Assembly: GCA_031459535.1 (NCBI GenBank)
Contig: JAVKIJ010000070.1
Coordinates: 1-17,636 of the forward strand
DNA length: 17,636 nt
DNA from: Candidatus Fervidifonticultor quintus
Lineage (GTDB): Bacteria > Sysuimicrobiota > Sysuimicrobiia > Sysuimicrobiales > Humicultoraceae
Direction of reading: 5' to 3'
A program made the translations under genes and the position numbers. Each line of letters begins with the position of its first letter. Within the stretch, counting starts at the first letter, position 1. A model generated the notes under the pieces. It worked only from the letters and a program-made list of their open reading frames with translations. It made no database searches and had not been told where the DNA came from. Positions 481 to 14,979 of the stretch are shown here, piece by piece.

Positions 481-1007
481 TCGCTTCACTCCGCCTGCTC
501 GCGCCCCGCTACGCGGTGCGCCGGGTTACAGACCTCTCTCCGGCGCTGCTGCGGGCGTGGAGGATCGATGCGCTCATGCTGGACCTGGACAACACGCTGG
601 TGGCATGGGCAGAGGCTGCGGCGCCTGCCGTGGTCTGCGCCTGGGTGGCCGAGCTCCGGCAGGCCGGCATCCGCGCCTGCATCGTCTCTAACAACCTCTC
701 GGGGCGAGTGCGCACAGTGGCGGCACAACTGCAGCTCCCCGCCGCCGAGGGCCGCTTCAAGCCCAGCGCCGACAAGCTGCGGCGCGCCCTGCGCATTCTG
801 GGGTCAGCGCCGGAGCGGACGGCTATGGTCGGCGATCAGATCTTCACCGACGTGCTGGCCGGCAACCGGCTTGGCGTCCCCACGATTCTCACCGAACCGC
901 TGGGTCCCCAAGAACCGATGCGCATCCGCATGCTGCGCCGCATTGAGCACGTGTTGATGGCGCTGATGGCCCGGCGTGGGCTCGTCCCTCGCGGGCTCGA
1001 TGTCTGA
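477..1007 (+). CDS. yqeG: YqeG-family HAD IIIA phosphatase
   Basis: HAD motif I DLDNTL, motif II IVSNN, KP, motif IV GDQIFTDV. GTGA overlap with the mltG stop. Confidence 0.85.
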   Translation: MIASLRLLAPRYAVRRVTDLSPALLRAWRIDALMLDLDNTLVAWAEAAAPAVVCAWVAELRQAGIRACIVSNNLSGRVRTVAAQLQLPAAEGRFKPSADKLRRALRILGSAPERTAMVGDQIFTDVLAGNRLGVPTILTEPLGPQEPMRIRMLRRIEHVLMALMARRGLVPRGLDV

Positions 1008-1027
1008 CCATTCCCTGGCGCGGGCAT
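1002..1027 (+). promoter_or_regulatory. Putative SigB/SigF-type promoter GTCTGA-N14-GGGCAT upstream of the HD-GYP gene
   Basis: GTCTGA at 1002-1007, 14-nt spacer, GGGCAT at 1022-1027. Same motif and spacing recur at five other gene starts in this window. Confidence 0.65.
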
Positions 1028-1063
1028 AGTTATCATCGCGCTGGCTTCATCCTCGGAGGACGC

Positions 1064-2677
1064 ATGCGCCCGGCCGGTGAGATCGAGTGGTGGCCCTTGT
1101 ACGTTCGGGGTTTCGTCGCCCTCTTCGGCCTCTCCGCGCTGATCCTGAGCGAACCGGCCCAGGCGGTGCTCCCGCCGGCGGCACCGCTGGCGCTGTTGGG
1201 CCTGATGCTGAGCACGGGCCTGCTGAGTGTCCTGGCGCAGCGGCGGCTGCCGGGGCCTCATGTGTCCAGTCTGGTCGGGGTGGTCTTCGAGCTGGCCATC
1301 GTGTCGCTCCTGGTCTACGAGACCGGCGGTGCGGCCAGCTTCTTCCTTTTCCTGTACGTGCCCGTGCTGCTGTGGGGCTCGGCCGGCCGCGGGCTCATCG
1401 CGGGTGTGGTCGGCGGCTGGGTCGCCGCGATCGGCTTTACGATCGCCGTCGCCCTGCGGGCCGAGTTGCCGGCGGATGCGCTGCCGCGGGCGGCGCTGTT
1501 GGCCATGGTCGGGTTTGTGGTCGGTCTCATCGAGCAGCGGCGGCTGGACGCGGAGGCGGCTGCCATGCGCGGAGCCCACGAGCTCACCCGTCAGGCACGC
1601 CTCTGGGCCGAAATCCATGCGGCGCTGACGGAGATGGTGCCTCTCGACCTGCGCGTACGTGCCCGGGTCCTGCTCGAGCGGTGTCAGCGGCTGGCCAATG
1701 CCGACCACGGGCTGGTGGCCGTGCTGGACATTGAGGATCGATTGGTGGTCGAGGCCGCCATTCCCGCGCCAGGCAGCGAACGCCAGCGCGGCGAGGTGCT
1801 GCCCAAGACCGCGGTCATCGAGGAGACTCTGCGCTCGGGCCTGCCGCACCGGACGGTGGAGGCCCAGGGCGACGCCGGGTGGGCGGCGGCGTTCGGCCCG
1901 GATGCCACGGGCAGCGCGCTGGTGCTGCCGTGTCGGTAGGTGGACGGGACGTTCGCGATCGTGTACCTGGCCCGCCAGGATGTCCGACTCTACGGCGACG
2001 ACGAGCTGAATGCGGTCACGACCCTGGTGGATGCCGGGGCGGTCCTCTTGCACGACGCGCGCATGCAGGCCGCGGCCCGCGACTTCCAGCTCAGCTCTAT
2101 CAACGCCCTGGCTGCGGCGCTGGAGGCGAAGGATCCCTACACGCGAGGCCACTCGCAGCGCGTGGCCAGCAACGCGACGGCCATTGCCACTGAGCTCGGC
2201 CTCTCTGCCGCCGAGATCGAACGCATCCGTTGGGCCAGCCTGCTCCACGACATCGGCAAGATCGCCACGCCCGAGCACATCCTCCACAAACGCGGCCCCC
2301 TCTCCGACGACGAGCGTGCGGTCATGAGCATGCATCCCGAACGGGGGGCCAACATCCTCAAGCAGATGGCGCCGTTCCGGCCGTTCGTGGAGTATGTCCG
2401 CTCTCATCAGGAGGCCTACGACGGTAGCGGGTATCCCGAGGGCCTGGCCGGCGACGCCATCCCCATGGGCGCCCGCATCATCCGGGTCGCAGACACGTTC
2501 GATGCCATAATCTCCGACCGACCCTACCAGCGAGGCCGCTCCGTAGAGGAAGCCATCGAGGCGCTGCGCCAGTTGGCTGGCACCGAACTCGACCCGAGGC
2601 TGGTGGACGTGTTCATTCGGATCCTGAAGCAGAAGCCGCCGTTCGAGGTGCAGTTGCGGATGTGGCGGGAACGGTAG
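1064..2677 (+). pseudogene. Membrane-GAF-HD-GYP c-di-GMP phosphodiesterase interrupted by in-frame TAG at 1937-1939 (nonsense allele, sequencing error or read-through)
   Basis: ORFs 1064-1939 and 1940-2677 are in one frame with only the stop codon between them. The stop falls inside a GAF domain (SALVLP...FAIVYLAR...DELNAVTTL). N-terminus has about 5 hydrophobic helices. C-terminus has EAKDPYTRGHS, HDIGK, HQEAYDGSGYP and ADTFDA...RPY. SD GGAGG precedes 1064. Confidence 0.75.
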
Positions 2678-2679
2678 GT

Positions 2680-3654
2680 TCAGAGATCCTGCGCGCTGGC
2701 GGCGGCAGCGATGGTGTTCCGTCCCGAGCGGGCCCGCGCCAGGGCCTCTTCGGCTCGCGCGAGCAGGGTCTGCTCGTCCTCGCCATCCCGCGGATAACAG
2801 GCCAAGCCGATGCTCACGGTCCGCGTGGTCGGGAAGGGGTGATCCGGCAGGACGAACGCCGTGCGCTCGACGACCCCCCGCAGCCGCTCAGCCATGGCGA
2901 TGGCGCCCTCGAGCGAGGTCTCGGGCAAGATGATCCCGAAGCGCCCGCCGCCCAGCGAGGTACGTACGTCCACCTGTCTCATCCACCGCGTCATGATGTC
3001 GACCAGTTGGAGCAGCAGAGCCTGCTGGTCGGCCTCGACGAGCACGTCGTCGAGCTCTTCGCTCTCATCGAGGGCGATCAGCCCGATGGTGCACGTCCTG
3101 CCGAACCGGCGGCTGCGCTGGATCTCGCGATGCACGGCGGCGCCGAAGTAGTTGCTGTTGAACAGGCCCGTGACCGGATCAACCAGGACCTGTCTGCGGG
3201 CCTGTTCGCGCAGGTCGTCGAGTCGCTTCTGGACGGCCAGCGTCCGCCGATCGCGCTGCAGCTCGTGCCGACGGATGGCCTCGAGCACGCCCACGGAGAT
3301 CATGCCGGTCAGGAACGTCCCCACGTCGGGGTCTGCGGTCCCGCCGGAGCCGCCGGTCAACAGGTCCAGGAGCGCCGGCTTGATCTGGAGCAGCACCCGG
3401 ATGACTTCGTCCAGGGGGATCTGGAGGGCGAACGCCTCCTGACTCAGGCGCCCGGCGAAGTCGGCAAAGGCCTCGGGCTGGCCGCTGGCCGTCGCGTGGG
3501 CCAGGGCGTCCACGCCGGCCTGCAGGCGCGGCCCGGTGCGGTCGGCGTCACGCCACAGCGGATGCAGATCGGGGATGTCGGACAGGCGCCGGCCCCACTG
3601 GGCTGCCAGGCGCCGGCGGTGGACGCGGATCTGTTCGACGGTCGAAGACCGCAT
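2680..3654 (-). CDS. Degenerate GGDEF-domain protein with N-terminal helical (RsbRD_N/globin-like) domain
   Basis: DPVTGLFN start of GGDEF fold, RQVD I-site, active site SLGGGRF instead of RYGG[DE]EF, TVSIGLACYP. Start placed at ATG 3654 behind a G-rich SD; the ORF-track GTG at 3711 is less likely. N-domain call is tentative. Confidence 0.8.
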   Translation of the reverse strand: MRSSTVEQIRVHRRRLAAQWGRRLSDIPDLHPLWRDADRTGPRLQAGVDALAHATASGQPEAFADFAGRLSQEAFALQIPLDEVIRVLLQIKPALLDLLTGGSGGTADPDVGTFLTGMISVGVLEAIRRHELQRDRRTLAVQKRLDDLREQARRQVLVDPVTGLFNSNYFGAAVHREIQRSRRFGRTCTIGLIALDESEELDDVLVEADQQALLLQLVDIMTRWMRQVDVRTSLGGGRFGIILPETSLEGAIAMAERLRGVVERTAFVLPDHPFPTTRTVSIGLACYPRDGEDEQTLLARAEEALARARSGRNTIAAAASAQDL

Positions 3655-3770
3655 GACTGCCCCCGCAGTAGCGTTTCTCAGAGTAGTATGCCCATCTCCT
3701 GTCGCGATCACCGCACCACACAGGACGATGGCGGCACCCGGCGAACTGAATAGGCACCCGGTTGACGATC

Positions 3771-4130
3771 ATGAGTGTGAAACTGAAAGGCATACTCCAG
3801 GAACTGGTGGGCGACGATACGCGGGCGGTGGCGCTGTTTGGGGGTGACGGCCAGGTGATCGAGGCCGTCACGAAGAGCGGCCTCCATGACCTTGGGCCGG
3901 TGTCCGCCGATCTGGCCGCCATGCTCAAGGTCGCGGCGTACTGCGCGCGCAAGCTGGACGGCGGCGACCTGGACCACGTGACCATGACCACCGACAACGT
4001 GGCCGTGCTCGCCGTCTCGGTGGGCCCGGCGCACTACCTGGTCACGGTTCTGGACGCCGGCGGCAACCTGGCGCGCGCGCGCGTCCAGATTCGGCGCCGG
4101 AAGGCGGAGATCACCGAGGAGCTCTCATGA
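3771..4130 (+). CDS. Roadblock/LC7 (MglB-like) domain protein
   Basis: About 119 aa with pattern [12 protein letters not shown]...[21 protein letters not shown]...GNLARAR, typical of Roadblock/LC7. Confidence 0.8.
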
Positions 4131-5110
4131 GCGTGCGCGGCTGCGCACTCGCGGCGTCCCTGGTCCTGGCGGTGCTGGCCGGCGGCCGGCCTGCCGCCGC
4201 TTCGCCGCCGACGCTGCGCGATGGCGCTGCGGCCTACTCGCAGGGTCGCCTTGACCGCGCCCGGGCCATCTTCCATCAGGTGGCGGTCACCCGCCCCGGG
4301 GAACATCACGCCTGGTTGTGGCTGGGCGTGGTGGAGTTCCAGAGGAAGGACTATGGGAGGGCCGAGCAGGCGTTCGGTCGCGCGGCGCATCTGGCGCCGC
4401 AGGATGCTTCTGTGCACCTCTGGTGGGGCCACAGCCTCGCAAAGCTCCAGCGACCCGAGGAAGCGGCCCGGGCGTTCGAGCGGGCCCTGCTCGCCCGTGG
4501 CAGTCTGAAAGTGTATGACCTGGCCCAGCAGGCCCTGCGCGCGATGCGGCCGCTGCCCGCTCTGCCAGTCGCGGGGCCGGTCGGTCAGCCGTCCAGGTCT
4601 GGGCCCGCGGCTCCGGCCTGGGTACTGAACCTTGACAGCTACCGCACCCTGGCCAAGCACTACAACTCGTCACTGTCCGTCGTCGAGTCCGATGCCATCG
4701 CCAGGGCGATCCTGGGGTACAGCCGGCACTTCAATCTGGACCCACGGTTGGTGGTGGCGCTGATCGCCGTCGAGTCAGGATTCCAGCCCAGGGCGCTGTC
4801 CCGCGCAGGTGCCATGGGGTTGGGGCAACTGATGCCGGGGACGGCGCGGGCGCTTGGCGTCAATCCGTGGGACCCGGTCCAGAACGTCTACGGCGCCATC
4901 AGGTATCTGCGCGGAAACCTCGACCAGTTTGGATGGGGCAACACGCACCTGGCTCTGGCCGCCTACAACGCGGGGCGCGGGGCGGTCGAGCGGTACGAGG
5001 GCATCCCGCCTTTTGCAGAGACCCAGTGGTATGTGGCCAACGTGACGAGCCTCTATCGCCGGTTGATGGCGATCCGGGGCGAGATGTCGGAACTCCACCG
5101 CCGCCTCTGA
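4127..5110 (+). CDS. Secreted TPR-containing lytic transglycosylase (SLT domain)
   Basis: Signal-peptide-like N-terminus and about 3 TPR-like repeats. SLT motifs VESGF (catalytic Glu), [28 protein letters not shown] overlap with the upstream gene. Confidence 0.88.
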
Positions 5111-5124
5111 GAGATTTGAGGGAG

Positions 5125-5150
5125 GACTAGGCGAAGCCCCGAACGGGAAC
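5125..5150 (+). promoter_or_regulatory. Putative SigB/SigF-type promoter GACTAG-N14-GGGAAC
   Basis: GACTAG at 5125-5130, 14-nt spacer, GGGAAC at 5145-5150, upstream of the 5223-7610 gene trio. Confidence 0.6.
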
Positions 5151-5171
5151 GTAAACAGTGCAGCGGCGCAC

Positions 5172-5211
5172 GCCGAGCGGGCAGCCGAGAGGGCTGCTCG
5201 CGGCCTTTCCT
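5172..5211 (+). terminator. GC-rich hairpin with weak pyrimidine tail (terminator or leader attenuator)
   Basis: GCGGGCAGCC (5177-5186) pairs with GGCTGCTCGC (5192-5201), extendable to 5172/5204, followed by CTTTCCT. Confidence 0.4.
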
Positions 5212-5222
5212 CTGGGCGGTAG

Positions 5223-6041
5223 GTGAGAGACCTGATCGAGACCCGGCGCCAGATCCTCGACACGTTGCGTGCCGGCCCGGCGCTCTTCGGCGGCTTGCCC
5301 GGTGACCTGGTAGACCTGGAGCGCCTGGCGGCGCACCTGGCACGTCGCGGTGTCCACGCTGCAGTCCACGTGTCTGACGGCACGTCGGACGGCGTCCTGT
5401 GGATCGAGGATGGTGGGCCAGCGGAGACGTGGTTCTTCGAAACCGGGGGCCCGGAGGCTGTCTTCCCATTTTCGGAAGGCCGGGACCTGCTCCGCCAGAT
5501 CGTTGCGCGCGGCGGCACGGTCAGCGTGTACGTCCGACCCGCGCAGGTGCCCACCGCCAGCCGGATGGCGCAGTTCCGCACGGTCATCGCCGAGCCGCCG
5601 GCCCCACCGCCCACGCCGGCAGAGCCCGAACCGATGCCCGCTCCGCACGCGCCCATCGAGGAAGCGCCCGAGGTCGAGGGCGCGTCCGAGGTCGAAGCCG
5701 GGCAGTCCGCTGAACCTCCGCGGGGAGGGGTCCAGATGGAGCCACCATCGCACCCGTGGCCCGGTATCCTGGCCGAGCTGCTGGTGCGCGTCGAGCGGTC
5801 TCGGGGCCCGCGTCTGGCAACCCTGTACCGCAACGCCCTGGCGAAGGCGCTGTCGGAGCACGGTGGGAGGCTCGAAGAGGACCGGATCATCGCGCCGCCG
5901 CTCTCAGAGTCGGTCTGGCGGCAGGTCGTTGAGAGGGGTTGCGAACCCATCGTGTTGATCGCGGGGCGCGCATTCCTCGACCGGATGATCGCCGCGTCCG
6001 AGCGACACGTGGTGGACCGCGACGCGGCCGCAGGGGAGTGA
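5223..6041 (+). CDS. Hypothetical protein, N-terminal PATAN/DUF4388-like domain, Pro/Glu-rich linker, helical C-terminal domain
   Basis: Operon-like spacing to the next gene. N-terminal GLPGDLVDLERLAAHL..RG...VHV.....GVLWIEDG resembles the PATAN/DUF4388 pattern (by eye only). Confidence 0.55.
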   Translation: MRDLIETRRQILDTLRAGPALFGGLPGDLVDLERLAAHLARRGVHAAVHVSDGTSDGVLWIEDGGPAETWFFETGGPEAVFPFSEGRDLLRQIVARGGTVSVYVRPAQVPTASRMAQFRTVIAEPPAPPPTPAEPEPMPAPHAPIEEAPEVEGASEVEAGQSAEPPRGGVQMEPPSHPWPGILAELLVRVERSRGPRLATLYRNALAKALSEHGGRLEEDRIIAPPLSESVWRQVVERGCEPIVLIAGRAFLDRMIAASERHVVDRDAAAGE

Positions 6042-6043
6042 CG

Positions 6044-6826
6044 ATGGCCAGGAATTCACGGACGATGGTGCTGGTGACCGTGGGGCTGTTGGCCTTGGCC
6101 ACGCTGTATGCGTATGGCAGCGAGGGAAGCTCGTCGCGGGATGGCGCGGTCCGCCACATGCTGGCGACCGCTTTGCAGATCCTCGCACCATTGGCGGCCG
6201 GGCTGGGGTGCTGGGAGGCGACGAAGGCTTACTCCCCCGGTGATCGCGAGCGCGTGGTGTGGGCCATGGGCGCTGCGGCGGCGCTGGCCTGGACGTCGGG
6301 TCGCCTGGTCTTCGCTGCTCACCGGTGGACGGGGGGTTCGTCGCCGCCATACCCGTCCGTCGCCGACGGGTTCTTCGTGGCGTTCTACGTGCTGCTGGCA
6401 GTGGCCCTGCTGTTGGAGATCCGACTAGTGCTGCCCATGGTGGACCGGTCCGCCCGCCTGCTCCTGGTCGCCGTGGGCGTGCTGGGGTGGACCGTGAGTT
6501 TCGTCTACGTGCTCCGCCCGATCGTCATGGGTCCGGCAGCACCCCTGCAGAAGATCCTGGCAGCCTTCTACCCGACGGTGGCGATGTTCCTGATACCGGC
6601 GGGCCTGATGCCGGCTCTGGGATTCCGTGGAGGCATCTCGGCATATCCCTGGCTGGTCGTGGCGGCTGCCGCGCTGTGCCTGGCCGCCGCCAGCCTGGGC
6701 TACGCGTTCCTGACGTGGTACAACCTCTATTCCGACGTGCACGTCGTCAACGCCCTCTGGGTGGCGGGCTTCGTCTTCCTGGCCCTGGGCGGATTCTGGC
6801 AGCGGACCGTGCAGGAGGAGACGTAG
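6044..6826 (+). CDS. Multi-pass membrane protein resembling a stand-alone membrane sensor domain
   Basis: About 8 hydrophobic segments. W...G....W..G.......PYPSVADGFF..FY motif is seen in N-terminal membrane sensors of GGDEF/kinase proteins. SD GGGGAG precedes ATG 6044. Confidence 0.7.
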   Translation: MARNSRTMVLVTVGLLALATLYAYGSEGSSSRDGAVRHMLATALQILAPLAAGLGCWEATKAYSPGDRERVVWAMGAAAALAWTSGRLVFAAHRWTGGSSPPYPSVADGFFVAFYVLLAVALLLEIRLVLPMVDRSARLLLVAVGVLGWTVSFVYVLRPIVMGPAAPLQKILAAFYPTVAMFLIPAGLMPALGFRGGISAYPWLVVAAAALCLAAASLGYAFLTWYNLYSDVHVVNALWVAGFVFLALGGFWQRTVQEET

Positions 6827-6827
6827 G

Positions 6828-7610
6828 GTGATCGCGCACTACGTCTGGCCCGAGGGGCTGGCTGTGGTGGTGGAGGCGGCGTCCGGCCGCGCCGCCACCG
6901 TGTTCGAACCCACAGGATGGCGGCATGGCGATCCGCGTCTGCTGTTGCCGGACGGCCCGCCGCCCGATGCCGACAGTGTGGCTCTCTCGCTGCCCTCGTG
7001 GTTGACCGAGGCGATCGTGCCTCTCGATGTGAGTCTGGGCGGTCTGCACACCGAGTTCGTGAACCTGGGCCGGATGATCTCGCGGCTGCAGGCAGCGGCA
7101 ACAGACGGCGTGCTGCTGGTTCTGGGGCCGCGACCGGTTGCGGCGGCGCTCAAAGGCGGAGCGCTGCGGAGCCTGCTGCCCGACGGCGGTTCGGCGGCGC
7201 CGGCCCCGGTCGACGTGGACCAGGCAGACGGATGGATCCTCTTCCTCAACGGATCTGTGGAGGTGCCGCGCGATGAGCGCGATGGCGCGAAGCCTGTAGA
7301 GCCTGTAGAAACGTCACCGCCGGTCAGCACGGCGCGCGAAGGGCCGAGCGAGCGCTATCTGATCGCGCTGGGCGCGCTTGGCGCCCTCCCCGAGGACGTC
7401 CGGGCCGCAATCGTCGCCGAAGGTGGGGAGGCAGGGATGGCCGTCCCGCCTTTGCTCGACGGCAACCGCTCTCTGCTCGAGGTCGCACAGGCCACCGGCT
7501 TGCGCGAAGAGCAGGTGATGGCGATCGTCAGGCTGCTTGCGGCGCGAAAGCTGGCGTTCCGGTACGTGGCCCGTGCCCGGGCGGCCGCGCGGCCGGGCGC
7601 CAGGGAGTGA
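6828..7610 (+). CDS. Hypothetical protein, PATAN/DUF4388-like core plus C-terminal winged helix
   Basis: GGLHTEFVNLGRMISRL....DGVLLV segment is similar to the 5223 protein. C-terminal LLDGNRSLLEVAQATGLREEQVMAIVRLL is wHTH-like. SD GGAGGAG upstream. Confidence 0.6.
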   Translation: MIAHYVWPEGLAVVVEAASGRAATVFEPTGWRHGDPRLLLPDGPPPDADSVALSLPSWLTEAIVPLDVSLGGLHTEFVNLGRMISRLQAAATDGVLLVLGPRPVAAALKGGALRSLLPDGGSAAPAPVDVDQADGWILFLNGSVEVPRDERDGAKPVEPVETSPPVSTAREGPSERYLIALGALGALPEDVRAAIVAEGGEAGMAVPPLLDGNRSLLEVAQATGLREEQVMAIVRLLAARKLAFRYVARARAAARPGARE

Positions 7611-7634
7611 AGGCCCGCCCAGACGTTTGGGGAT

Positions 7635-7660
7635 GTCTAACGCGCGAGCAATCTGGGTAC
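7635..7660 (+). promoter_or_regulatory. Putative autoregulatory SigB/SigF-type promoter GTCTAA-N14-GGGTAC
   Basis: One mismatch per box to the B. subtilis SigB consensus GTTTAA-N12-14-GGGTAT. Lies upstream of the riboswitch and sigma gene. Confidence 0.7.
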
Positions 7661-7700
7661 TAGATTTTACACAGACCTGGCGTTAAGGTTCTCGACGGTC

Positions 7701-7706
7701 TATAGT
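7701..7706 (+). promoter_or_regulatory. Possible sigma70-type -10 box TATAGT (second promoter for the sigma gene)
   Basis: 5/6 match to TATAAT in an AT-richer intergenic stretch; no convincing -35. Confidence 0.3.
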
Positions 7707-7753
7707 AAAGAGGCTCGGACGACGTAGCGGTCGAGAGCCACAAGTTCATATCG

Positions 7754-7836
7754 TCCTCGATAAAGGCAAACCCATCGCGAGATGGGGGCGCAAAGCTTCG
7801 GGACCAGGTGTCTGGTTGGCCGGGCTGCCGAAGGGA
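7754..7836 (+). ncRNA. c-di-GMP-I (GEMM-I) riboswitch aptamer
   Basis: CGATAAAGGCAAACCCATC-GCGA-GATGGGGGCGCAAAGC...GGCCGGGCTGCCGAAGGGA. Has GGCAAACC, a GNRA-capped P2, GCAAAGC and 3' GCCGA. The G20-equivalent is G, indicating c-di-GMP rather than 3',3'-cGAMP. Confidence 0.93.
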
Positions 7837-7844
7837 GTGCAGCG

Positions 7845-7883
7845 ATCAGCCTCTTGGGGCAGCCCGAGAGGCTGGTTCGTTTT
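7845..7883 (+). terminator. Riboswitch expression-platform intrinsic terminator
   Basis: 14-bp stem ATCAGCCTCTTGGG / CCCGAGAGGCTGGT (2 G-U pairs), loop GCAG, tail TCGTTTT. Confidence 0.8.
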
Positions 7884-7897
7884 CCTGGGGAGGCGCC

Positions 7898-8722
7898 ATG
7901 GCAGTGCGTGCCGCACACCGACAGGTCGCATCTCGACGCATCACGCATCACACTGCGACGCCGTCTCCCGCGCCGGGCGATGTGGAGATACTCGTGGCGG
8001 AATATCTGCAGACGCCGACCCCGCAGATTCGAGAACGCATCGTGGCGGCCTGCACGCCCCTGGTCCGCCGCATCGCCGGCGAGTTCGTCTTCGCGGGCGT
8101 GCCCTCCGAGGACCTGGTGCAGGTGGGTTACATCGGGCTCCTCAACGCCATCGCGGCGTTCGACCCGGCCAAGGGGGCGAAGTTCTCCACATATGCCAGC
8201 TACCTGATCCGCGGGGAGATCCGTCACTACCTGCGGGACCAACGGGATACGATCCGCAAGCCGCGCTGGCTGCAGCGGCTGAACAGCAGGATCGAGGAGG
8301 CCGTGAGCCGCCACGTGAGCGAGACCGGTCGGTTCCCGGGCCTCGAACACCTCTCGGAGGAGCTGAACATCGAGGAGGACGGTCTGCTGGAGATCCTCCG
8401 GACGCGCGAGGCCCTGCGGACCGTGTCGTTGGAGACCGATGAGGAGAACCCGGAGCTGCGAGTTGACCGTGACCGGATCAGGCATCGCACGCACGTCAGC
8501 TTCCAGTTGCCGATCGAGGACCGCGTGGTCCTGTTGGAGGCCATGGAGTCGCTGAACGCGCTGCAGCGGAAAGTGCTCTACTACATCTTCTACACCGACC
8601 TCACGCAGATGGAAGCGGCAAAGCGCATCGGGATCTCACAGAAGCACGTGTCGCGCGTGCTGGCATCGGCACTGGCCAAGCTCCGGGGGCTGATGGGCGC
8701 GCCATCGCCCGGCGCGATGTAG
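7898..8722 (+). CDS. Group 3 sigma factor, SigB/SigF/SigG family
   Basis: Region 2 EDLVQVGYIGLLNAIAAFDP..G.KFSTYA...IRGEIRHYLRD...IRKPR. Region 4 LTQMEAAKRIGISQKHVSR. SD GGGGAGG precedes ATG 7898. Confidence 0.92.
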   Translation: MAVRAAHRQVASRRITHHTATPSPAPGDVEILVAEYLQTPTPQIRERIVAACTPLVRRIAGEFVFAGVPSEDLVQVGYIGLLNAIAAFDPAKGAKFSTYASYLIRGEIRHYLRDQRDTIRKPRWLQRLNSRIEEAVSRHVSETGRFPGLEHLSEELNIEEDGLLEILRTREALRTVSLETDEENPELRVDRDRIRHRTHVSFQLPIEDRVVLLEAMESLNALQRKVLYYIFYTDLTQMEAAKRIGISQKHVSRVLASALAKLRGLMGAPSPGAM

Positions 8723-8737
8723 ATGGGGGGAGCGGAG

Positions 8738-9094
8738 ATGTCGCAGCTCAAAGACGTGTTGATGGACCTTTCCAAGGTGGAGGGTGTGCTGGCCGCGCTC
8801 GTCGTCGCCCGGGACGGCTTCGTCGTCGAGGGCCTGGCCACCGACGAATCAGTGGACCTGGAGGCCGTCGGCGCCATTGTGGCCAGCAACATCGCGGCGT
8901 CAGACTCCATGGGCCGGGAGATGGCCAGGGGAGGGATGCGCAACATCCTGATCGAGTTCGACGAGGGCCCCGTGGCGATCGGGCCGGCCGGCCCGGACGC
9001 CGTGTTGGTCGTCGTCGGCAGCCGGCAGGCCAACCTGGGCCGCATCCGTCTGGAGATGCGCCGGAACAGCCAGCTGGCCGCCGCGCTGGTCTAG
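8738..9094 (+). CDS. Roadblock/LC7 (MglB-like) domain protein
   Basis: VEGVLAALVVARDGFVV, NILIEFDEG and ANLGRIRLEM are typical Roadblock motifs. SD GGGGAG precedes ATG 8738. Confidence 0.88.
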   Translation: MSQLKDVLMDLSKVEGVLAALVVARDGFVVEGLATDESVDLEAVGAIVASNIAASDSMGREMARGGMRNILIEFDEGPVAIGPAGPDAVLVVVGSRQANLGRIRLEMRRNSQLAAALV

Positions 9095-9104
9095 CGGCCC
9101 GCAG

Positions 9105-9130
9105 GCCTAGAGGCCGATGCTCTTGGGCAT
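9105..9130 (+). promoter_or_regulatory. Putative SigB/SigF-type promoter GCCTAG-N14-GGGCAT for the minor pilin operon
   Basis: GCCTAG at 9105-9110, 14-nt spacer, GGGCAT at 9125-9130. SD at 9141-9147 lies just after the predicted TSS. Confidence 0.65.
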
Positions 9131-9155
9131 AGTCCGGCGAGAGGGGGGCGCTCAC

Positions 9156-9587
9156 GTGGCGGTCATGCCCCGACGGCGGCTGCGAAGGGCAGAAGAGGGG
9201 TTTAGCTTCATCGAACTCCTGGTGGCCCTATCGTTGCTCGCCGGTGTGTCGCTGTTCATCTTTCAGACCTTCATTGCCGGGATGGCCCATGCGGGCCGGG
9301 CGAACGAGCGGGCGGCCGCCACCATGGTCGCCCTGCAGATCATGGAGCAGGTCCGGGCCAGCGTGAACCCATACGAGATGGTGGGCTTCGTGGACCTGCC
9401 GCGGACGGCGCTGCCGCTGCCCGCGCCGTACTCAGGGATCGCCAATCCCACGCCGCACCGGTTCGAGGTGGCGGTGGACGTGACCCGTGACGACAACCTG
9501 ACGCTGACCACGGTGACCGTGCAGGTGTACCGGCCCTCGGACACGACGCCCTTCGTCACGCTGACCACGGTGCTCGATGACCAGTAG
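9156..9587 (+). CDS. Type IV minor pilin, PilV/GspI-like
   Basis: Class III signal: basic leader RRRLRRAEEG|FSFIELLVAL. Start GTG 9156 (or ATG 9165) behind SD GAGGGGG. Confidence 0.85.
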   Translation: MAVMPRRRLRRAEEGFSFIELLVALSLLAGVSLFIFQTFIAGMAHAGRANERAAATMVALQIMEQVRASVNPYEMVGFVDLPRTALPLPAPYSGIANPTPHRFEVAVDVTRDDNLTLTTVTVQVYRPSDTTPFVTLTTVLDDQ

Positions 9588-10158
9588 CCGCCGCGTTGGC
9601 TGGTTGCGGTCGGCCGCGGGCGATGCCCGCGGCGTGACCCTCGTGGAACTGGTGATGGCGCTGGCGCTCCTCAGCCTGGCGCTGGGCAGCATCTATGGAT
9701 TCGTGCTGACGGGTGGGCGATCCGCGCGGGTCACCAACGATCTGCTCCAGACCCAGGCCCAGGTCCGCGCGGCGATGGACAACGTGGTGGACGAGATCCG
9801 CTGGGCGCAGCGGGTGACGGCGGCCAGCGCGGCATCTGTGACGCTGCTCGTCCCCCAGTCCACGCCCTTCTCACCGTCCAGCCCCTACACCGTGACCTTT
9901 GCCTACGATGCCGGGACGCAGACGCTGACCCGGCGCGAGGACCCGGACGCGGACGGTCCTTCCGCCGCGGGTGCACCCGTGGACCTGGCCTATGGGCTCG
10001 CCAGCCTGACATTCGAGTACTTCGACAACAACGGGATCTCGCTGGGCTCGTCGCCGGCCGACCTGGACGCGGTGGCCCGGGTGCGCATGGCGGTCACCGC
10101 CATGCGGGACCAGACGATCCGCTCCTTCGCCGGCGACGCGGCACTGCGGGGCCGGTAG
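9577..10158 (+). CDS. Type IV minor pilin, PilW/GspJ-like
   Basis: ARG|VTLVELVMALALL prepilin motif, followed by a Q.Q.RAAMD.V.DEIR.A helix. Confidence 0.85.
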   Translation: MTSSRRVGWLRSAAGDARGVTLVELVMALALLSLALGSIYGFVLTGGRSARVTNDLLQTQAQVRAAMDNVVDEIRWAQRVTAASAASVTLLVPQSTPFSPSSPYTVTFAYDAGTQTLTRREDPDADGPSAAGAPVDLAYGLASLTFEYFDNNGISLGSSPADLDAVARVRMAVTAMRDQTIRSFAGDAALRGR

Positions 10159-10187
10159 ACGCCCTGGGGTTGGGCCGGAGGGTTGAG

Positions 10188-12218
10188 ATGATGGCACGGC
10201 TGCGTTCCACCAGAGGGTTCGCCCTGGTGTCGGCTCTGCTCGTGATCTTCGTCCTGGTCATCCTCGGCGCGCTCATCCTCTATCTGAGCGGCAAGGAGAT
10301 CGCGCTGAGCGCCACGCGGATGACCGGGGCCCAGGCGCTGAACATTGCCGAGGGCGGCGGCGTGGCCGCCCGTGCCGCGCTCATGGTCCTGATGGGCGCC
10401 AATCCCACCGATGTGGTCTCCGTGGACGCCTCACTGAGCGGAACCACCCTCGCCACCTGGTATGCGGGAGGCGATCCCGCCTCACAGAACCCGCTGCGCC
10501 TGTTCGACTACCTGGTGCTGGACGGCCAGCGTTACACCACCGGCGCCACGTCGGCGACCAGCTCGCTGAGCTTCGAGGTGAACTGGGCGGCCCCGTACAC
10601 GCACCGCAAGCTGCAGCTTGCCACGGGCACGCCGCCGGCGAACTCCCTGGGGACGGGGAGCTACAGGGCGACGCTGGTGGTGAGCCGCCGGCTGGCGCCC
10701 CACCCCACCGACCCCGGGCAGCCGCAGCGCTACATCCAGCAGCTCGGCGTGGACCACTACGAGTTTTACTACACGTACACGGTCACCAGTGACGGCCAGG
10801 TGCCACCGTGGCCGGCACGGCGTCGCGTGACGATGTCCAGAGACTTTAGCGTTCAGATCAAACGGCAGAGCTTCGCGCACTACGCGCTGTTCACCCACGT
10901 CCACACCACCCCCAGCGGCGGCGACATCTGGTTCACCAGCCGCACCAGCTTCGACGGCCCGGTGCACACCAACGGGGAGTTCCGGTTCGCCTTCTTCCCC
11001 AAGTTCGGCACACCCGACAGCGACGGCACCTGTCCGCCGAACAATGCCGCGCCCACCCGGCTGACCAGTGTGAGCCGCTACGCCTGGTTCAACAACAACG
11101 GGAGTCCGCGGCGGCTCCAGGCCAACGAGAACGTGGTCAACGGTGTCCGGCGCGACGCGCCGGTGCTCCCCGACTGCACACCGTCCACCCTCAGCGACGA
11201 CAACGATAACCAGGCCGCCGACTTCACCCGCGGCGCGGCGTCCATCCCGATGCCCAGCAACCCGTATAGCCAGAAGGGCGTCTCCATCGGTCGGGACCCT
11301 GCGGACACCACGGCGGTGACGAATCTACAGATCCGCCAGGCGGTCCCCGAGCTCCCCGACAGCACCAGCACCGTGCCCAACGGCATCTACGTTCCGGTCG
11401 TGGACGCCAACGGCAATGGCATCTCCGATCCCGGCGAGGCCCTGGGCGGCGGCATCTACGTCCAGGGCGACCTGAACGGCATGACCCTCAGCGTGGGCGG
11501 GCCAGGCAACAATCTGGCCATCTACACGCTCGTGCAGGGCTCACAGACGGTCACTGTGACGGTCGACCGCGACGCGCAGACGACCACGGTCACCAACACC
11601 GCGTGGTCTTCTCCGCAGACCCGGATGTTTGCCGGCGTGCCCAAGGGCTGGCAGGGGCCGGGCAACACCAACGCGACCCTCATCTTTGTCCAGGGCAATA
11701 TCAACTCACTGAGCGGGACGCTGGAAGAGAAGGAGCAGACGACCATCGCCGCCTCCGGGCGCATCGACATCACCAACCACCTGCGCTACGAGGTGCCCCC
11801 GATCGTCACCGATCCCAACAGCAACCCGCTCAACGTGCTCGGCCTGTACTCGGCGAACAACGACATCCGCATCTCGGCCTCAGCGCCCAACGACCTGGAG
11901 ATCCACGCCGTGCTGATGGCGGGAAACACCGGCGACGGCGTCAATAGCTCGGTGAACGTCCAGAACTACGATACGGGCTCCCCGCGCGGGACGCTGCGGT
12001 TGATCGGCGGGGTCATCGAGGAGTACTACGGCGCCTTCGGCACCTTTGACCCGAATACCGGGAACCCACAGACAGGGTACGGCCGGGACTTCCGCTACGA
12101 CCGCCGCATGAGCCGCGGGTTCACGCCGCCATACTTCCCCACCACGCCGCTGTTCGAAATCACCCAGGTACAGGGCCTGGCCGGCGCGCGGCCGGTCTGG
12201 CGCGAGGCGGCGCCGTGA
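10188..12218 (+). CDS. Large PilX/GspK-position pilin-like protein (DUF4900/ComZ-like tip protein)
   Basis: RG|FALVSALL (no Glu5, as in PilX) and ALNIAEGG helix. FDGPVHTNG, beta-rich N/T/G body, C-terminal GYGRDFRYDRRM..PPYFP. Confidence 0.8.
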   Translation: MMARLRSTRGFALVSALLVIFVLVILGALILYLSGKEIALSATRMTGAQALNIAEGGGVAARAALMVLMGANPTDVVSVDASLSGTTLATWYAGGDPASQNPLRLFDYLVLDGQRYTTGATSATSSLSFEVNWAAPYTHRKLQLATGTPPANSLGTGSYRATLVVSRRLAPHPTDPGQPQRYIQQLGVDHYEFYYTYTVTSDGQVPPWPARRRVTMSRDFSVQIKRQSFAHYALFTHVHTTPSGGDIWFTSRTSFDGPVHTNGEFRFAFFPKFGTPDSDGTCPPNNAAPTRLTSVSRYAWFNNNGSPRRLQANENVVNGVRRDAPVLPDCTPSTLSDDNDNQAADFTRGAASIPMPSNPYSQKGVSIGRDPADTTAVTNLQIRQAVPELPDSTSTVPNGIYVPVVDANGNGISDPGEALGGGIYVQGDLNGMTLSVGGPGNNLAIYTLVQGSQTVTVTVDRDAQTTTVTNTAWSSPQTRMFAGVPKGWQGPGNTNATLIFVQGNINSLSGTLEEKEQTTIAASGRIDITNHLRYEVPPIVTDPNSNPLNVLGLYSANNDIRISASAPNDLEIHAVLMAGNTGDGVNSSVNVQNYDTGSPRGTLRLIGGVIEEYYGAFGTFDPNTGNPQTGYGRDFRYDRRMSRGFTPPYFPTTPLFEITQVQGLAGARPVWREAAP

Positions 12219-12649
12219 GCCGCAGATCCCGCGCTGCTGCGACCGCGGGCTTCAGCCTCCTCGAGGTCGCGGTCGTCGCGGCGCTGGTGGGGGTCGTCCT
12301 GGCGCTGGCGTTGACGGGCTGGCGGGGATATTCGGCCCAGCAGCGGCTGCGCTACGGCACCGCGCAGGTGGCCACTGACCTTCGGCAGGCGCAGGAGCGG
12401 GCCAAGGCCGAGCGGGTCGTCTACACAGTGACGTTTGTCGCGTCGTCGCCCAACTACACGATCGCCCGCAGCGGAGGCGGGTTCCTGGAGAACGCCACCC
12501 TGCCGGAAGGTGTCACGTCAACCGCCAGCGTCACCGTGACGTTCTCGGCCTTCGGCAGGCCGGATGCGGCCCACACGATCACCGTCCAGAGCTCAGCGGG
12601 AACGGGAGTGGTGACCGTGACCGAACTGGGCGGCATCTCTTACCAGTAG
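12215..12649 (+). CDS. Type IV minor pilin, FimT/GspH-like
   Basis: AG|FSLLEVAVV, DLRQAQERA, VTFSAFGRP and VTVTELG fit the FimT/GspH pattern. GTGA overlap with the upstream stop. Confidence 0.85.
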   Translation: MSRRSRAAATAGFSLLEVAVVAALVGVVLALALTGWRGYSAQQRLRYGTAQVATDLRQAQERAKAERVVYTVTFVASSPNYTIARSGGGFLENATLPEGVTSTASVTVTFSAFGRPDAAHTITVQSSAGTGVVTVTELGGISYQ

Positions 12650-12650
12650 G

Positions 12651-14870
12651 CTACTCCTGCACGTAGACCACCCGCAGGATCTCATCAATCGTGGAGATGC
12701 CCGACATGACCTTCTCGAGGCCGTCGTCCCGCAACGTGCGCATGCCTTCCCGGATGGCCTGGGCCTTGATCTCTGCCGCGGGCGCGCGGTGCACGATCAT
12801 GTCCCGGATCGCGTCGCTCACCACCATCAGCTCGAAGATGCCGATCCGTCCCCGGTAGCCGGTACCCCGGCAGTAGTCGCAGCCGGTGCCACGGTAGAAC
12901 TCCACGCTGGCGTCCGCCTCGATGTTGACGCCCAGCCGGCGCAGCGCGTCGGCCGGCGGGACGTAGGCGACCTTGCACTTGGTGCAGATGGCCCGGGCCA
13001 GGCGCTGCGCCAGGACGGCGATGACCGAGGAGCTGATCAGGAATGGTTCGACACCCATGTCGGTCAACCGGGTGATGGCGCCGGCCGAGTCATTGGTGTG
13101 CAGCGTGGACAGCACCAGGTGCCCAGTCAGGGCGGCCTGAATGGCGATCTCCGCGGTCTCCCGGTCGCGGATCTCTCCCACCATGACGATGTCGGGGTCC
13201 TGCCGGAGGATGCTGCGCAGACCGTTGGCAAAGGTGAGGCCGGCCTTGGGGTTGACCTGGACCTGGTTGATGCGGGGGATCTGGTACTCCACCGGGTCCT
13301 CGACGGTCACGATGTTGCGGTCGAGGGTGTTGAGCTTGCCCAGCGTGGCGTACAGCGTAGTGGTCTTGCCGCTCCCGGTGGGGCCGGTCACCAGGACCAT
13401 TCCGTGTGGCTTGCTCACCGCGCTCTCCCACAGGTGGAGGACCTCGGTGGGGAACCCCAGGCGGGTGAGGCCCAACTGGGTGGAGGACTGGTCGAGGACC
13501 CGCAGCACGACCTTCTCGCCGAACATGGTCGGCAGGGTGGAGACGCGCAGGTCAATGTTGCGGCTGTCGGCGGTCAGGTGGATGCGACCGTCCTGGGGCC
13601 GTCGCCGCTCGGCGATGTCCAGGTCGGCCATGATCTTGATCCGCGACGTGAGCGCCGCCTTGAGGTTGGCGGGCGGGTTCATCACGTCGCGCAGCACGCC
13701 ATCCACCCGATAGCGGATGAACAACCCGTTGCGGTGCGGCTCGATGTGGATGTCGCTGGCGCTCTGCTTCACCGCCTCGTCCACGATGAGGTTGACGAGC
13801 TTGACGACCGGCGCCTCCTCGGTGAGCGCCTTCAGCTTCTCGACCGACTCGTCTTCTTCGCCGGTCTCCAGCGCGTACTCGGTGATCGACTCGCGCATCA
13901 CGCGATCGATGAGGCTGTCGGCGATCTGGTAGACGCTGGCCAGGGCGTTGGCGATGTCTTCCTCGGTGGCGATCACCAGGTCCACTTCCATCCCGGTGAT
14001 CAATCGCACGTCGTCGATCGCGAGCACGTTGAGCGGGTCGGCGACGGCCAGCACCAGCCGGCCGCCCCGCCGCTCCAGCGCGATGCACTTGTGCCGGACC
14101 GCCAGCGCGTGCGGGATCAGCTTGGCGGTCTCCTCGTCAATCTTGGTGTTGGCCAGGGCCACGTACGGGTAGCCCCACTGCGCGGCCATGGCGCGGGCCA
14201 GATCCTGGTCGCTGACGGCGCCGGTGTCACGCAGGATCTTGCCGAGCCGCTCGCCCGTCCGGTCCTGGATCTCCTGGGCGTGTTTGAGCTGCTGCTCGGT
14301 GACCACCCCTAGCTCGAGGAGGATCTGACCGAGCCTCTCGGCCCGGACGGCCTTGACGCCGACCTTCGTCCGGCCGCCCTTGGCCGGCGTGGGCTTCTCG
14401 GCGGCGCGATGGCTGCTCTTCTCCGCGGCGCGCGGGGCGGGCTTCCCAGCCGCCGGGGCCGGCGCGGGCGGCGGAGGTTCCACCGTGGGCGCGATGGGGG
14501 CATCGACATTCAGCCTGGCCTGGATCACCGGGTCGTTGGGCGAGGCCGCTACGGCCTGCTGGTAGGCCTTCAGCACCCAATCGGTCTCGCCGCGGGCGAG
14601 ATGCTTGTCTGCAGCCGTCAAGTAGGCCGCCGCCGCGTCGTGCGGCGCGTCCAGCGCCCGATACACCTCCGCGAGGTCCCGGTACACCCAGGGCTCGTCG
14701 GGATCCAAGGACGCCAGGCGCAGGTAGGCTTCCTGCGCTTCCGACCAGCGCCGGGCCCGCGCCAGCGTGCGCGCCTCGGCGTAGGCGAATGCGCGGTCGA
14801 GGGTCGGGCAGTCCGCCGCAATCCCGGCTGCCGCTTTGAGCGTCTGGAGCGTGCCGTCGCCGTGCGCCAT
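12651..14870 (-). CDS. pilB: Type IV pilus assembly ATPase PilB/GspE with N-terminal TPR and MshEN domains
   Basis: Walker A GPTGSGKTT, TVEDPVE, LRQDPDIVMVGEIRD, TGHLVLSTLHTN, Zn cysteines CTKC/CDYC, MshEN RLGQILLELG...Q...RLGKIL. Start at the second ATG (14870) gives proper spacing to SD GAGAGG. Confidence 0.93.
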   Translation of the reverse strand: MAHGDGTLQTLKAAAGIAADCPTLDRAFAYAEARTLARARRWSEAQEAYLRLASLDPDEPWVYRDLAEVYRALDAPHDAAAAYLTAADKHLARGETDWVLKAYQQAVAASPNDPVIQARLNVDAPIAPTVEPPPPAPAPAAGKPAPRAAEKSSHRAAEKPTPAKGGRTKVGVKAVRAERLGQILLELGVVTEQQLKHAQEIQDRTGERLGKILRDTGAVSDQDLARAMAAQWGYPYVALANTKIDEETAKLIPHALAVRHKCIALERRGGRLVLAVADPLNVLAIDDVRLITGMEVDLVIATEEDIANALASVYQIADSLIDRVMRESITEYALETGEEDESVEKLKALTEEAPVVKLVNLIVDEAVKQSASDIHIEPHRNGLFIRYRVDGVLRDVMNPPANLKAALTSRIKIMADLDIAERRRPQDGRIHLTADSRNIDLRVSTLPTMFGEKVVLRVLDQSSTQLGLTRLGFPTEVLHLWESAVSKPHGMVLVTGPTGSGKTTTLYATLGKLNTLDRNIVTVEDPVEYQIPRINQVQVNPKAGLTFANGLRSILRQDPDIVMVGEIRDRETAEIAIQAALTGHLVLSTLHTNDSAGAITRLTDMGVEPFLISSSVIAVLAQRLARAICTKCKVAYVPPADALRRLGVNIEADASVEFYRGTGCDYCRGTGYRGRIGIFELMVVSDAIRDMIVHRAPAAEIKAQAIREGMRTLRDDGLEKVMSGISTIDEILRVVYVQE

Positions 14871-14919
14871 CCACATCCTCTCGACAGCAGGAAGAGGGCT
14901 GCGGGGTCTGCCCCTTCGG

Positions 14920-14945
14920 GACTAGTCCCAAGATCTTCTGGGCAT
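14920..14945 (+). promoter_or_regulatory. Putative SigB/SigF-type promoter GACTAG-N14-GGGCAT for the dnaB-like operon
   Basis: GACTAG at 14920-14925, 14-nt spacer, GGGCAT at 14940-14945. Confidence 0.65.
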
Positions 14946-14953
14946 ATTCCTAG

Positions 14954-14979
14954 GTGCCCATCTGAAGATTGCCTTAGAC
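14954..14979 (-). promoter_or_regulatory. Putative SigB/SigF-type promoter GTCTAA-N14-GGGCAC for pilB
   Basis: Minus strand GTCTAA at 14979-14974, 14-nt spacer, GGGCAC at 14959-14954. Confidence 0.65.

Follow-up and report, generated by a model that had tools for sequence, protein, structure and literature searches.

A fixed-spacer promoter-like motif, probably read by a riboswitch-led SigB/F-type sigma factor, precedes pilus and cyclic di-GMP genes in Candidatus Fervidifonticultor quintus

A defining trait of the SigB/F/G family of alternative sigma factors is their control through an anti-sigma kinase (RsbW/SpoIIAB) together with a STAS-domain anti-anti-sigma factor, and Bacillus subtilis SigB is regulated by RsbV/RsbW partner switching of this kind. 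For Synechocystis sp. PCC 6803, the accessible part of PMC2532724 (Asayama and Imamura 2008) describes SigF as an autoregulated, stringent sigma factor that transcribes pilA1 from a promoter with TAGGC at -32 and GG(G)TAA at -12, and it quotes the B. subtilis SigB consensus as RGGXTTRA-N14-GGGTAT. For Clostridioides difficile, the accessible part of PMC6200980 describes a class I cyclic di-GMP (c-di-GMP) riboswitch, Cdi-1-3, that terminates the flgB operon encoding SigD, and a class II riboswitch, Cdi-2-4, that turns on pilA1. Here we analyze a 17,636-nt stretch of DNA (hereafter the window) from Candidatus Fervidifonticultor quintus, a hot-spring bacterium that has not been cultured. The window encodes a SigB/F-type sigma factor behind a c-di-GMP-I-type riboswitch and carries six copies of a bipartite motif, GNCTRR-N14-GGGHAY, ahead of its transcription units, among them the sigma gene itself, pilus genes and an HD-GYP gene. 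The six sites prove to be members of a genome-wide motif, which quite probably represents the promoter class of the sigma factor encoded in the window.

The window sigma factor resembles Synechocystis SigF in being a SigB-related group-3 sigma factor linked to pilus and motility genes, in the G-rich, non-sigma70 -12/-10 box of the associated promoters (GGGTAA there, GGG(C/A/T)A(T/C) here), and in having promoter copies ahead of pilus genes and ahead of its own gene, both as judged here from sequence (PMC2532724, accessible part). It differs in the upstream element (TAGGC at -32 within an AG-rich stretch in Synechocystis, against G(A/T)CTA(G/A) and a spacer of strictly 14 nt here), in the presence of riboswitches, none of which is described in the part of PMC2532724 accessible to us, and in a predicted regulon that includes most HD-GYP genes. 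Recognition by SigF was shown in vitro (PMC2532724, same part), whereas recognition by the window sigma factor is something that we infer. Comparison with B. subtilis SigB gives a similarly mixed picture. The two fall in the same subfamily by best-scoring model (TIGR02980, here below its cut-off), and the promoters share a 14-nt spacer, a GGG-led -10 box and a -35 element ending in T(A/G)A, so that the resemblance to SigB promoters proposed in an earlier note on this DNA agrees with the RGGXTTRA-N14-GGGTAT consensus in spacer and -10 box, as quoted in that part of PMC2532724. The -35 core is G(A/T)CT here rather than GTTT, the targets are pili and c-di-GMP enzymes rather than general stress genes, and, unlike in B. 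subtilis, the 89%-complete genome yielded neither a STAS protein nor a small RsbW-like kinase.

The likeness to C. difficile lies in the RNA. In both organisms a class I c-di-GMP-type terminating riboswitch stands ahead of an alternative sigma factor, an arrangement that would relay c-di-GMP to a wider regulon, and in both type IV pilus genes are under riboswitch control, by prediction in our case (PMC6200980, accessible part). However, C. difficile SigD is a sigma-28-type factor encoded deep in a 23-kb flagellar operon, whereas the riboswitch here directly precedes a SigB/F-type sigma gene, and the C. difficile pilin switch is a class II, ON switch, whereas the predicted sigma targets here feed class I-type riboswitches (PMC6200980, accessible part). 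Neither a riboswitch immediately ahead of a SigB/F-type pilus sigma gene nor sigma-dependent promoters feeding riboswitches turned up in our literature search, in which cyanobacterial SigF and the C. difficile riboswitches were the nearest precedents. SigF-type pilus sigma factors and riboswitch control by c-di-GMP each have precedents, and the window would combine the two.

The window is contig C107 of a 3.12-Mb genome (3,115,143 bases in 138 contigs, 88.85% complete; labelled G000), and its G+C content is 66-71%. The earlier note had listed six motif copies, each facing a downstream gene; the same six were recovered, identical in position, strand and sequence, with no further match in the window, and all six are directed at the next gene on their own strand. 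Five sites lie on the plus strand: site 1 (1002..1027, plus strand, GTCTGA-N14-GGGCAT), site 2 (5125..5150, plus, GACTAG-N14-GGGAAC), site 3 (7635..7660, plus, GTCTAA-N14-GGGTAC), site 4 (9105..9130, plus, GCCTAG-N14-GGGCAT) and site 5 (14920..14945, plus, GACTAG-N14-GGGCAT), with site 6 (14954..14979, GTCTAA-N14-GGGCAC) on the minus strand. Dinucleotide shuffles contained 0.24 matches on average and at most 2, and none of 200 shuffles reached 6. We rejected the idea that the TRR of the -35 element merely reflects stop codons, as only site 1 overlaps one (the TGA of a HAD gene, 1005-1007).

Across the genome, the degenerate GNCTRR-N14-GGGHAY pattern has 56 matches, compared with 42 for the reversed pattern, and most of the matches outside the window are GNCTGG forms within genes; the window, 0.57% of the genome by length, holds 6 of the 56. 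The reversed pattern was judged unsuitable as a control, because CTAG is rare and GATC is not, which gives the two a different coding background, and spacing controls were used instead. For GNCTAR-Nx-GGGHAY, there were 15 genome matches at x=14, whereas each of the nine other spacings tried (10-13 and 15-19) gave 0-2, with ten of the 15 having a non-coding -10 box and five lying in the window. Intergenic matches to GNCTRR-Nx-GGGHAY numbered 17 at x=14 and 1-3 at other spacings, while the G[AT]CT-N16-GGGHAY form had 31 intergenic copies compared with 2-5 at each of nine other spacings, or ~27 sites above background. The intergenic status of these sites depends on a crude codon-usage gene caller built for this analysis (3025 genes, 93% coding), whose identical calls were applied at all spacings.

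An offset scan that assumed nothing but the -10 box gave the same -35 element. When all 4-mers at offsets 12-23 from 668 intergenic GGGHAY hexamers were compared, the most position-specific were ACTA at 19, GTCT at 20, GACT at 20 and TCTA at 19, which together describe G(A/T)CTA beginning 20 nt 5' of the GGG, the geometry that the earlier note had proposed. The consensus that emerges is G(A/T)CT(A/G)N-N14-GGG(C/A/T)A(T/C), so while GNCTRR does match all six window sites, G(A/T)CT(A/G)N is the better description of the -35 element. The preference for N14 recurs in four same-family relatives, each of a different genus (G004, G008, G012 and G006), in which GNCTAR occurs 12, 9, 12 and 14 times at N14, 2, 1, 2 and 0 times at N13, and 5, 1, 1 and 3 times at N15, respectively; a genome from another family has a weak N14 preference (3 at N14, 0 at N13 and 1 at N15). 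With high confidence, these sequence patterns point to a genuine bipartite, fixed-spacer, gene-oriented, promoter-like class. The excess over random DNA that had been expected is thus seen both in the shuffles and at N14 in the spacing controls, but the description of a hidden, local regulon does not stand, as there are ~30 intergenic copies genome-wide. One instance stands apart in form: at C106:62356-62452, near a contig end, an identical 26-nt copy (GTCTCT...GGGTAC) occurs twice, 71 nt apart, and resembles a short repeat.

The sites within the window are conserved in related loci to different degrees. Synteny across the family extends from YceG to an MshEN-domain protein, and wherever a site is conserved, its two boxes are retained and the 14-nt spacer between them has changed. 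Scored with a position weight matrix (PWM) derived from the sites of G000, to which the relatives are kin rather than independent, site 5 is the best conserved (9/9 related loci, PWM 19.0-24.6), and a motif-like site 1 with a diverged spacer is found in all seven related loci in which both flanking genes were found (PWM 13.2-19.5). Site 2 is retained in 5/5 related loci. Site 4 is present in two of the three loci with both flanking genes found, being shared with G008 and absent from G004. The exact site 3 pattern occurs in 11 of 22 family sigma loci (L019-L029), again with diverged spacers, and a GGGCAA variant occurs in L031, whereas site 6 is strong only in G000, with 5/8 relatives scoring 11.2-13.0 and 3/8 having none. 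The conservation in orthologous loci foreseen in the earlier note was therefore found for sites 1, 2 and 5 and, in half of the loci, for site 3.

Elsewhere in the genome, the motif precedes genes for both pilus assembly and c-di-GMP turnover. Pilus-related targets include a pilM-pilN-pilO-GGDEF operon, whose last member is a separate GGDEF gene, two T2SSE PilT-like ATPase genes with a hybrid kinase, and a pilin-like operon with a paralogous sigma gene in last position (C135, with motifs at C135:2944 and C135:6611; this sigma gene has its own GTCTAC-N14-GGGTAC copy 27 nt upstream). The motif also precedes a REC-GGDEF-HD-GYP gene, two REC-HD-GYP genes, one of them ahead of two pilin-like genes, another two HD-GYP genes, a G8/beta-helix protein gene and an operon that encodes a PilZ protein. 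Of the eight HD_5 (HD-GYP) genes in the genome, six have the motif upstream, one of them in a weaker GTCTGC form. Pilus genes were thus rightly named as targets, since pilins, pilB, pilMNO and pilT-like genes all carry the motif, but the regulon would not be dedicated to pili, given the HD-GYP, GGDEF and other genes that carry it as well.

The sigma factor that we consider the probable reader is encoded at 7898..8722 on the plus strand (274 aa, with GGAGG 5' of the ATG at 7898). It is a SigB/SigF/SigG-like group-3 factor with regions 2, 3 and 4 and no region 1.1 (Pfam Sigma70_r2, E 4.4e-17; Sigma70_r4, E 3.1e-13; Sigma70_r3, E 1.8e-4), and these Pfam regions, with TIGR02980 as the best model below its cut-off, agree with the SigB/F-type assignment made earlier. 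Orthologues are present in 39 of the 41 genomes searched, its own included, and in 23 of 24 genomes of the family. Its leader contains, in order, site 3, a sigmaA-like promoter, a c-di-GMP-I-type aptamer, a terminator hairpin, GGAGG and the ATG. Site 3 is the distal promoter-like site and is predicted to be an autoregulatory or cascade input of the sigma gene. The putative sigmaA-like promoter (7678..7706, plus strand), read from the sequence, comprises a -35 TGGCGT (7678-7683), a 17-nt spacer and a -10 TATAGT (7701-7706), and it sits ~50 nt 5' of the aptamer, where relatives retain TTGCGx-N17-TAnnnT.

The aptamer itself (7756..7833, plus strand) matches its best Rfam model, RF03167, over the full length (1-80 of 80) with 68.7 bits against a gathering threshold of 59 (E 1e-14; clan CL00126, comprising RF01051 and RF03167). 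A riboswitch lies upstream of the sigma orthologue in all 20 family loci examined, and riboswitches were further found in L040, in three loci from metagenome-assembled genomes (L061-L063) and in 4/6 loci from other families of the order; in nine more distant homologue loci (by their titles from Thermotogae, Acetothermia/Bipolaricaulota, Verrucomicrobiales and Dehalococcoidia) the riboswitch was absent from all nine. The expression platform (7844..7886, plus strand) is a terminator-like hairpin, 7844-7877 by the minimum free energy fold of RNAfold, followed by the U-rich tract UCGUUUUCC. A strong GC-rich hairpin (-18.7 to -36.9 kcal/mol) is present in 21/21 orthologous leaders with differing stem sequences, and the U-rich tails of these leaders were read by eye; an automatic terminator rule, misled by folds that drew the U-tract into the stem, scored only 3/21 leaders. 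RNAalifold recovered the aptamer helices in the leaders, and the MAFFT alignment of the terminator region was too gapped for pair counts. The earlier account of the sigma gene was right about the motif upstream but overlooked the riboswitch, the terminator and the sigmaA-like promoter.

Since transcription has to begin shortly before a riboswitch, riboswitches elsewhere in the genome mark where a promoter must be, and the motif is placed there. G000 has seven c-di-GMP-I-type riboswitch matches, and for five of them the -10 box of the motif ends 14, 15, 17, 24 or 31 nt upstream of the aptamer (C70, C84, C128, C51 and C135). These riboswitch-led transcripts had no place in the regulon described in the earlier note, which overlooked the motif ahead of them. 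When we examined 30 of the 40 riboswitch matches in five relatives from five genera, in 16 of the 30 loci a motif scoring 12 or more by PWM lay no further than 130 nt upstream, mostly at 14-30 nt, compared with 0/30 in control windows 300-430 nt upstream. Because the PWM came from G000 sites and the relatives are kin, this coupling appears to repeat the G000 result rather than to prove it independently.

Relatives also carry riboswitches behind window sites that have none in G000. In the leaders of site 2, c-di-GMP-I-type matches lie 19, 20 and 47 nt after the -10 box in G004, G008 and G012, with G004:C1:205513-205604 above the RF03167 cut-off (60.3 bits) and G008:C7:68149-68244 and G012:C1:2816870-2816956 below it (51.8 and 43.9 bits). 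The site 6 (pilB) leaders of G004 and G008 likewise contain c-di-GMP-I-type matches, above the cut-off in G008 (C7:77759-77844, 59.3 bits) and below it in G004 (C1:193301-193389, 51.4 bits). The other leaders of the window, including those of sites 2 and 6, show no riboswitch remnant at E values up to 1. Riboswitches thus appear, from these comparisons, to have been gained or lost behind the same promoters. Two riboswitches in G000 deserve separate mention. At C70:23605-23963 (L002 1305-1663), the motif is followed by a full c-di-GMP-I-type riboswitch (68.9 bits) with no called gene downstream, the next gene beyond it being a DAO oxidoreductase on the opposite strand, and this unit could be a small open reading frame (ORF), an antisense RNA or a stand-alone RNA. 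The riboswitch at C109:5125-5203, the only c-di-GMP-I-type one of G000 that lacks the motif, is preceded instead by a sigma70-like TTGCCA-N17-TATGGT.

The proposal that the window sigma factor reads the motif is plausible, and the main argument for it comes from G008. This genome (97% complete) has only one SigBFG-type sigma factor, the orthologue of 7898-8722, besides a SigA-sized one, and it retains sites 1, 2, 4 and 5. Several findings weigh against the proposal. G000 itself encodes three SigB/F-like paralogues, namely 7898-8722, C135:6663-7403 (53% identity) and C83:5917-6693 (49%), along with a SigA-sized factor, so at 49-53% identity any or several of them could read the motif. The promoter class could be read mainly by the C135 or the C83 paralogue, with the window sigma factor as a target or a cascade step. 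This alternative, which we regard as unlikely, would fit the finding that the C135 sigma gene, the last in a pilin operon led by the motif and a riboswitch, has a motif copy of its own 27 nt upstream, as well as the hierarchical sigma cascade for pilus-based motility in Nostoc punctiforme described in the accessible part of PMC6495340. It would also fit the -10 boxes, because both sigma genes carry GTCTA-N15-GGGTAC while most structural genes have GGGCAT or GGGAAC, a hierarchy-like split that may reflect sub-classes read by different paralogues, or a cascade. Yet the genome with a single SigBFG-type factor keeps four of the sites, the window sigma gene is embedded among the six sites and conserved in 23 of 24 family genomes, and the region 4.2 recognition helix is nearly identical in the C135 paralogue, which makes shared recognition likelier than exclusive recognition. 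The motif copy upstream of the sigma gene in 11 of 22 loci speaks for autoregulation; site 3 is missing from half of the family sigma loci, including those of G008, G018 and G024, and autoregulation would therefore not be universal.

Other observations count against recognition by the window sigma factor, or against parts of the account built on it, which as a whole is drawn from sequence. The best NCBIfam model for the protein, TIGR02980 (SigBFG), scores 178.2 bits, below the cut-off of 234.35, and no match above that cut-off was found in any of four genomes searched with the model; by these scores, 7898-8722 is a divergent relative of the TIGR02980 subfamily and not a certified member. When a loose GWCT-N16-GGGHAY pattern, with its high coding background, was counted over 41 genomes, G010 and G026, which both lack a sigma match, did not clearly stand out. 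Some sites lie ahead of M20 and S9 peptidase genes, a PRTase-ABC transporter operon and carA-like and glmS-like genes, and these may partly be background. The aptamer departs from the RF03167 consensus at two junction positions, where the model has GGGACGCGAAG and the window and all 20 orthologues read GGGGCGCAAAG instead; the RF03167 name (c-di-GMP-I-GGC) presumably refers to binding-pocket nucleotides. For sister riboswitches in this regulon, RF01051 is the top-scoring model, and c-di-GMP is the most likely candidate ligand of the sigma-leader aptamer.

The two remaining alternatives concern the nature of the motif rather than its reader. It could be the site of a transcription factor, such as a response regulator or a c-di-GMP-binding regulator, since several regulators are encoded in the locus and a conserved two-box site ahead of co-regulated genes could be an operator. 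However, the two boxes are unlike each other and non-palindromic, have a single spacer length and an orientation that always follows the gene, and resemble the SigB consensus with its identical N14 spacer, while the -10 box lies 14-31 nt before aptamers that need a nearby start, with no other promoter-like element evident; we consider an operator very improbable. It is scarcely credible, in our view, that chance or base composition produced the six sites as an artefact of a degenerate pattern chosen after the fact in GC-rich DNA. The pattern was indeed fitted by eye, its 56 genome matches compare with 42 for the reversed pattern and are mostly GNCTGG within genes, and coding DNA should in any case contain fewer words with CTAG, but the dinucleotide shuffles argue against such an artefact and the spacing controls in G000 and its relatives refute it. 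The unbiased recovery of the -35 element, the cross-genus conservation of sites and the coupling to riboswitches also speak against it. Recognition of the motif as a promoter by the window sigma factor thus remains the reading that we prefer.

How the sigma factor is itself controlled was considered next to its family's usual mode of regulation. A search with two models only, PF13466 and PF13581, returned no STAS_2 (PF13466) match in the 88.85%-complete G000, and HATPase_c_2 (PF13581) matched only in open frames of 357-854 aa, with no small RsbW-like kinase found in the same genome; in the window, Pfam showed neither an anti-sigma kinase nor a STAS anti-anti-sigma protein. Because no RsbW/RsbV-type partner-switching genes were found, the riboswitch probably replaces this kind of partner switching as the main input to the sigma factor. 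Regarding the sign of the switch, the 3' strand of the aptamer (GGGCUGCC) is complementary to the apex of the terminator hairpin (GGCAGCCC), the antiterminator fold is ~7 kcal/mol costlier than the terminator fold, and the terminator hairpin does not overlap the folded aptamer. The lack of overlap and the costlier antiterminator suggest that ligand binding would favor termination, making the riboswitch an OFF switch; this folding-based prediction is made with low confidence and is the weakest inference in our account.

A Roadblock/LC7 gene (8723..9094, plus strand; Pfam Robl_LC7, E 6.2e-16) starts immediately after the sigma stop codon, and it adjoins the sigma gene in 12/12 syntenic loci with 72-89% identity. 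The locus contains two Roadblock/LC7 genes, at 3762-4130 and 8723-9094, and no small GTPase domain was found among the window proteins by Pfam.

The genes behind the other sites are as follows. Site 1 lies 37 nt 5' of the ATG of a 291-aa gene (1064-1939) whose product has no Pfam or NCBIfam match and which abuts a c-di-GMP phosphodiesterase-type HD-GYP gene (1940-2677; Pfam HD_5, E 1.9e-42), the two forming a likely plus-strand operon (1064..2677). On the minus strand, 2680..3711 is a diguanylate-cyclase-type GGDEF gene (NCBIfam TIGR00254, 82.4 bits) with no motif upstream. A plus-strand ORF at 2662-3753 was rejected as a shadow ORF, since the codon-usage caller favors the minus-strand GGDEF gene, and a reading of the plus strand only would mis-annotate the GGDEF locus through it. 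Site 2 precedes three uncharacterized genes (5223-6041, 6038-6826 and 6828-7610); a weak Pfam search of the uncharacterized target genes gave nothing useful. The minor-pilin operon behind site 4 (9157..12649) contains two plus-strand prepilin-type genes with Pfam N_methyl matches (one ending at 9587, the other at 9577-10158), a DUF4900 protein gene (10170-12218, plus, Pfam) and a GspH-like pilin gene (12215-12649, plus, NCBIfam), and its NCBIfam matches to GspI, PilV and GspH are all weak. Because an ATG at 9117 falls within the site 4 motif, the first pilin more likely starts at the GTG at 9157.

Sites 5 and 6 occupy the divergent region between pilB and a DnaB-like operon. Site 6 is directed at the minus-strand gene for the PilB-type assembly ATPase (12651..14876), which has TPR and MshEN N-terminal domains (Pfam T2SSE, E 4e-146; MshEN, E 4.2e-24). 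Site 5 precedes plus-strand genes for a DnaB_C/AAA_25 ATPase (15093-16664, Pfam; TIGR00665 DnaB, 117.1 bits, far below the cut-off of 385.25), a DUF6812 protein (ending at 17181, Pfam) and an MshEN-domain protein (17168 to 17635, cut by the window end, Pfam); the best-conserved motif copy thus stands before an operon of unassigned role. The -10 boxes of sites 5 and 6, on opposite strands, face each other 8 bp apart (14940-14959), such that two polymerases would compete and each 5' untranslated region would include the other promoter. The ttGCCC that forms a minus-strand GGGCAA box in the site 6 region is retained in G001, G003, G004, G008 and G011. In metatranscriptome data, one RNA run contains 42% of the sampled words, although the data are contigs and DNA carry-over is possible; these contigs cover 30/30 window bins at low depth and one of them spans sites 5 and 6, with start positions unreadable from contigs.

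In the circuit that we propose, a basal, sigmaA-driven sigma transcript would be gated by the leader riboswitch, and the sigma protein would then activate its own distal promoter, the pilus machinery and phosphodiesterases. Several of the target transcripts would be gated a second time by their own riboswitches, resulting in a nested feed-forward c-di-GMP circuit. If the sigma riboswitch is an OFF switch, low c-di-GMP would lead to the production of sigma factor, pili and HD-GYP enzymes, that is, to a self-reinforcing motile state. A bolder version of this scheme, which is possible but doubtful, would hold that RNA has replaced partner switching altogether: a riboswitch-gated sigma factor, whose promoters feed further riboswitches and drive most HD-GYP genes and its own gene, would constitute a doubly self-reinforcing, bistable pilus-motility switch made of nested RNA AND-gates, with the co-translated Roadblock protein as a new kind of sigma partner.

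If recognition by the window sigma factor is correct, the promoter code and the regulon of an alternative sigma factor would be defined in a lineage without a cultured member, and the annotation of pilus and c-di-GMP genes in these genomes would become predictive. A single second messenger would be read by RNA at two successive steps, first at the sigma gene and then at the targets of the sigma factor, with positive feedback through phosphodiesterases. With a sigma factor of 274 aa, promoters of 26 bp and aptamers of 80 nt, the parts are small and open to direct tests in vitro, and the sigma factor, its promoters and the aptamers could serve as orthogonal promoter-sigma-riboswitch modules. The link between SigF-type sigma factors and pili described in cyanobacteria would thereby extend to another lineage.

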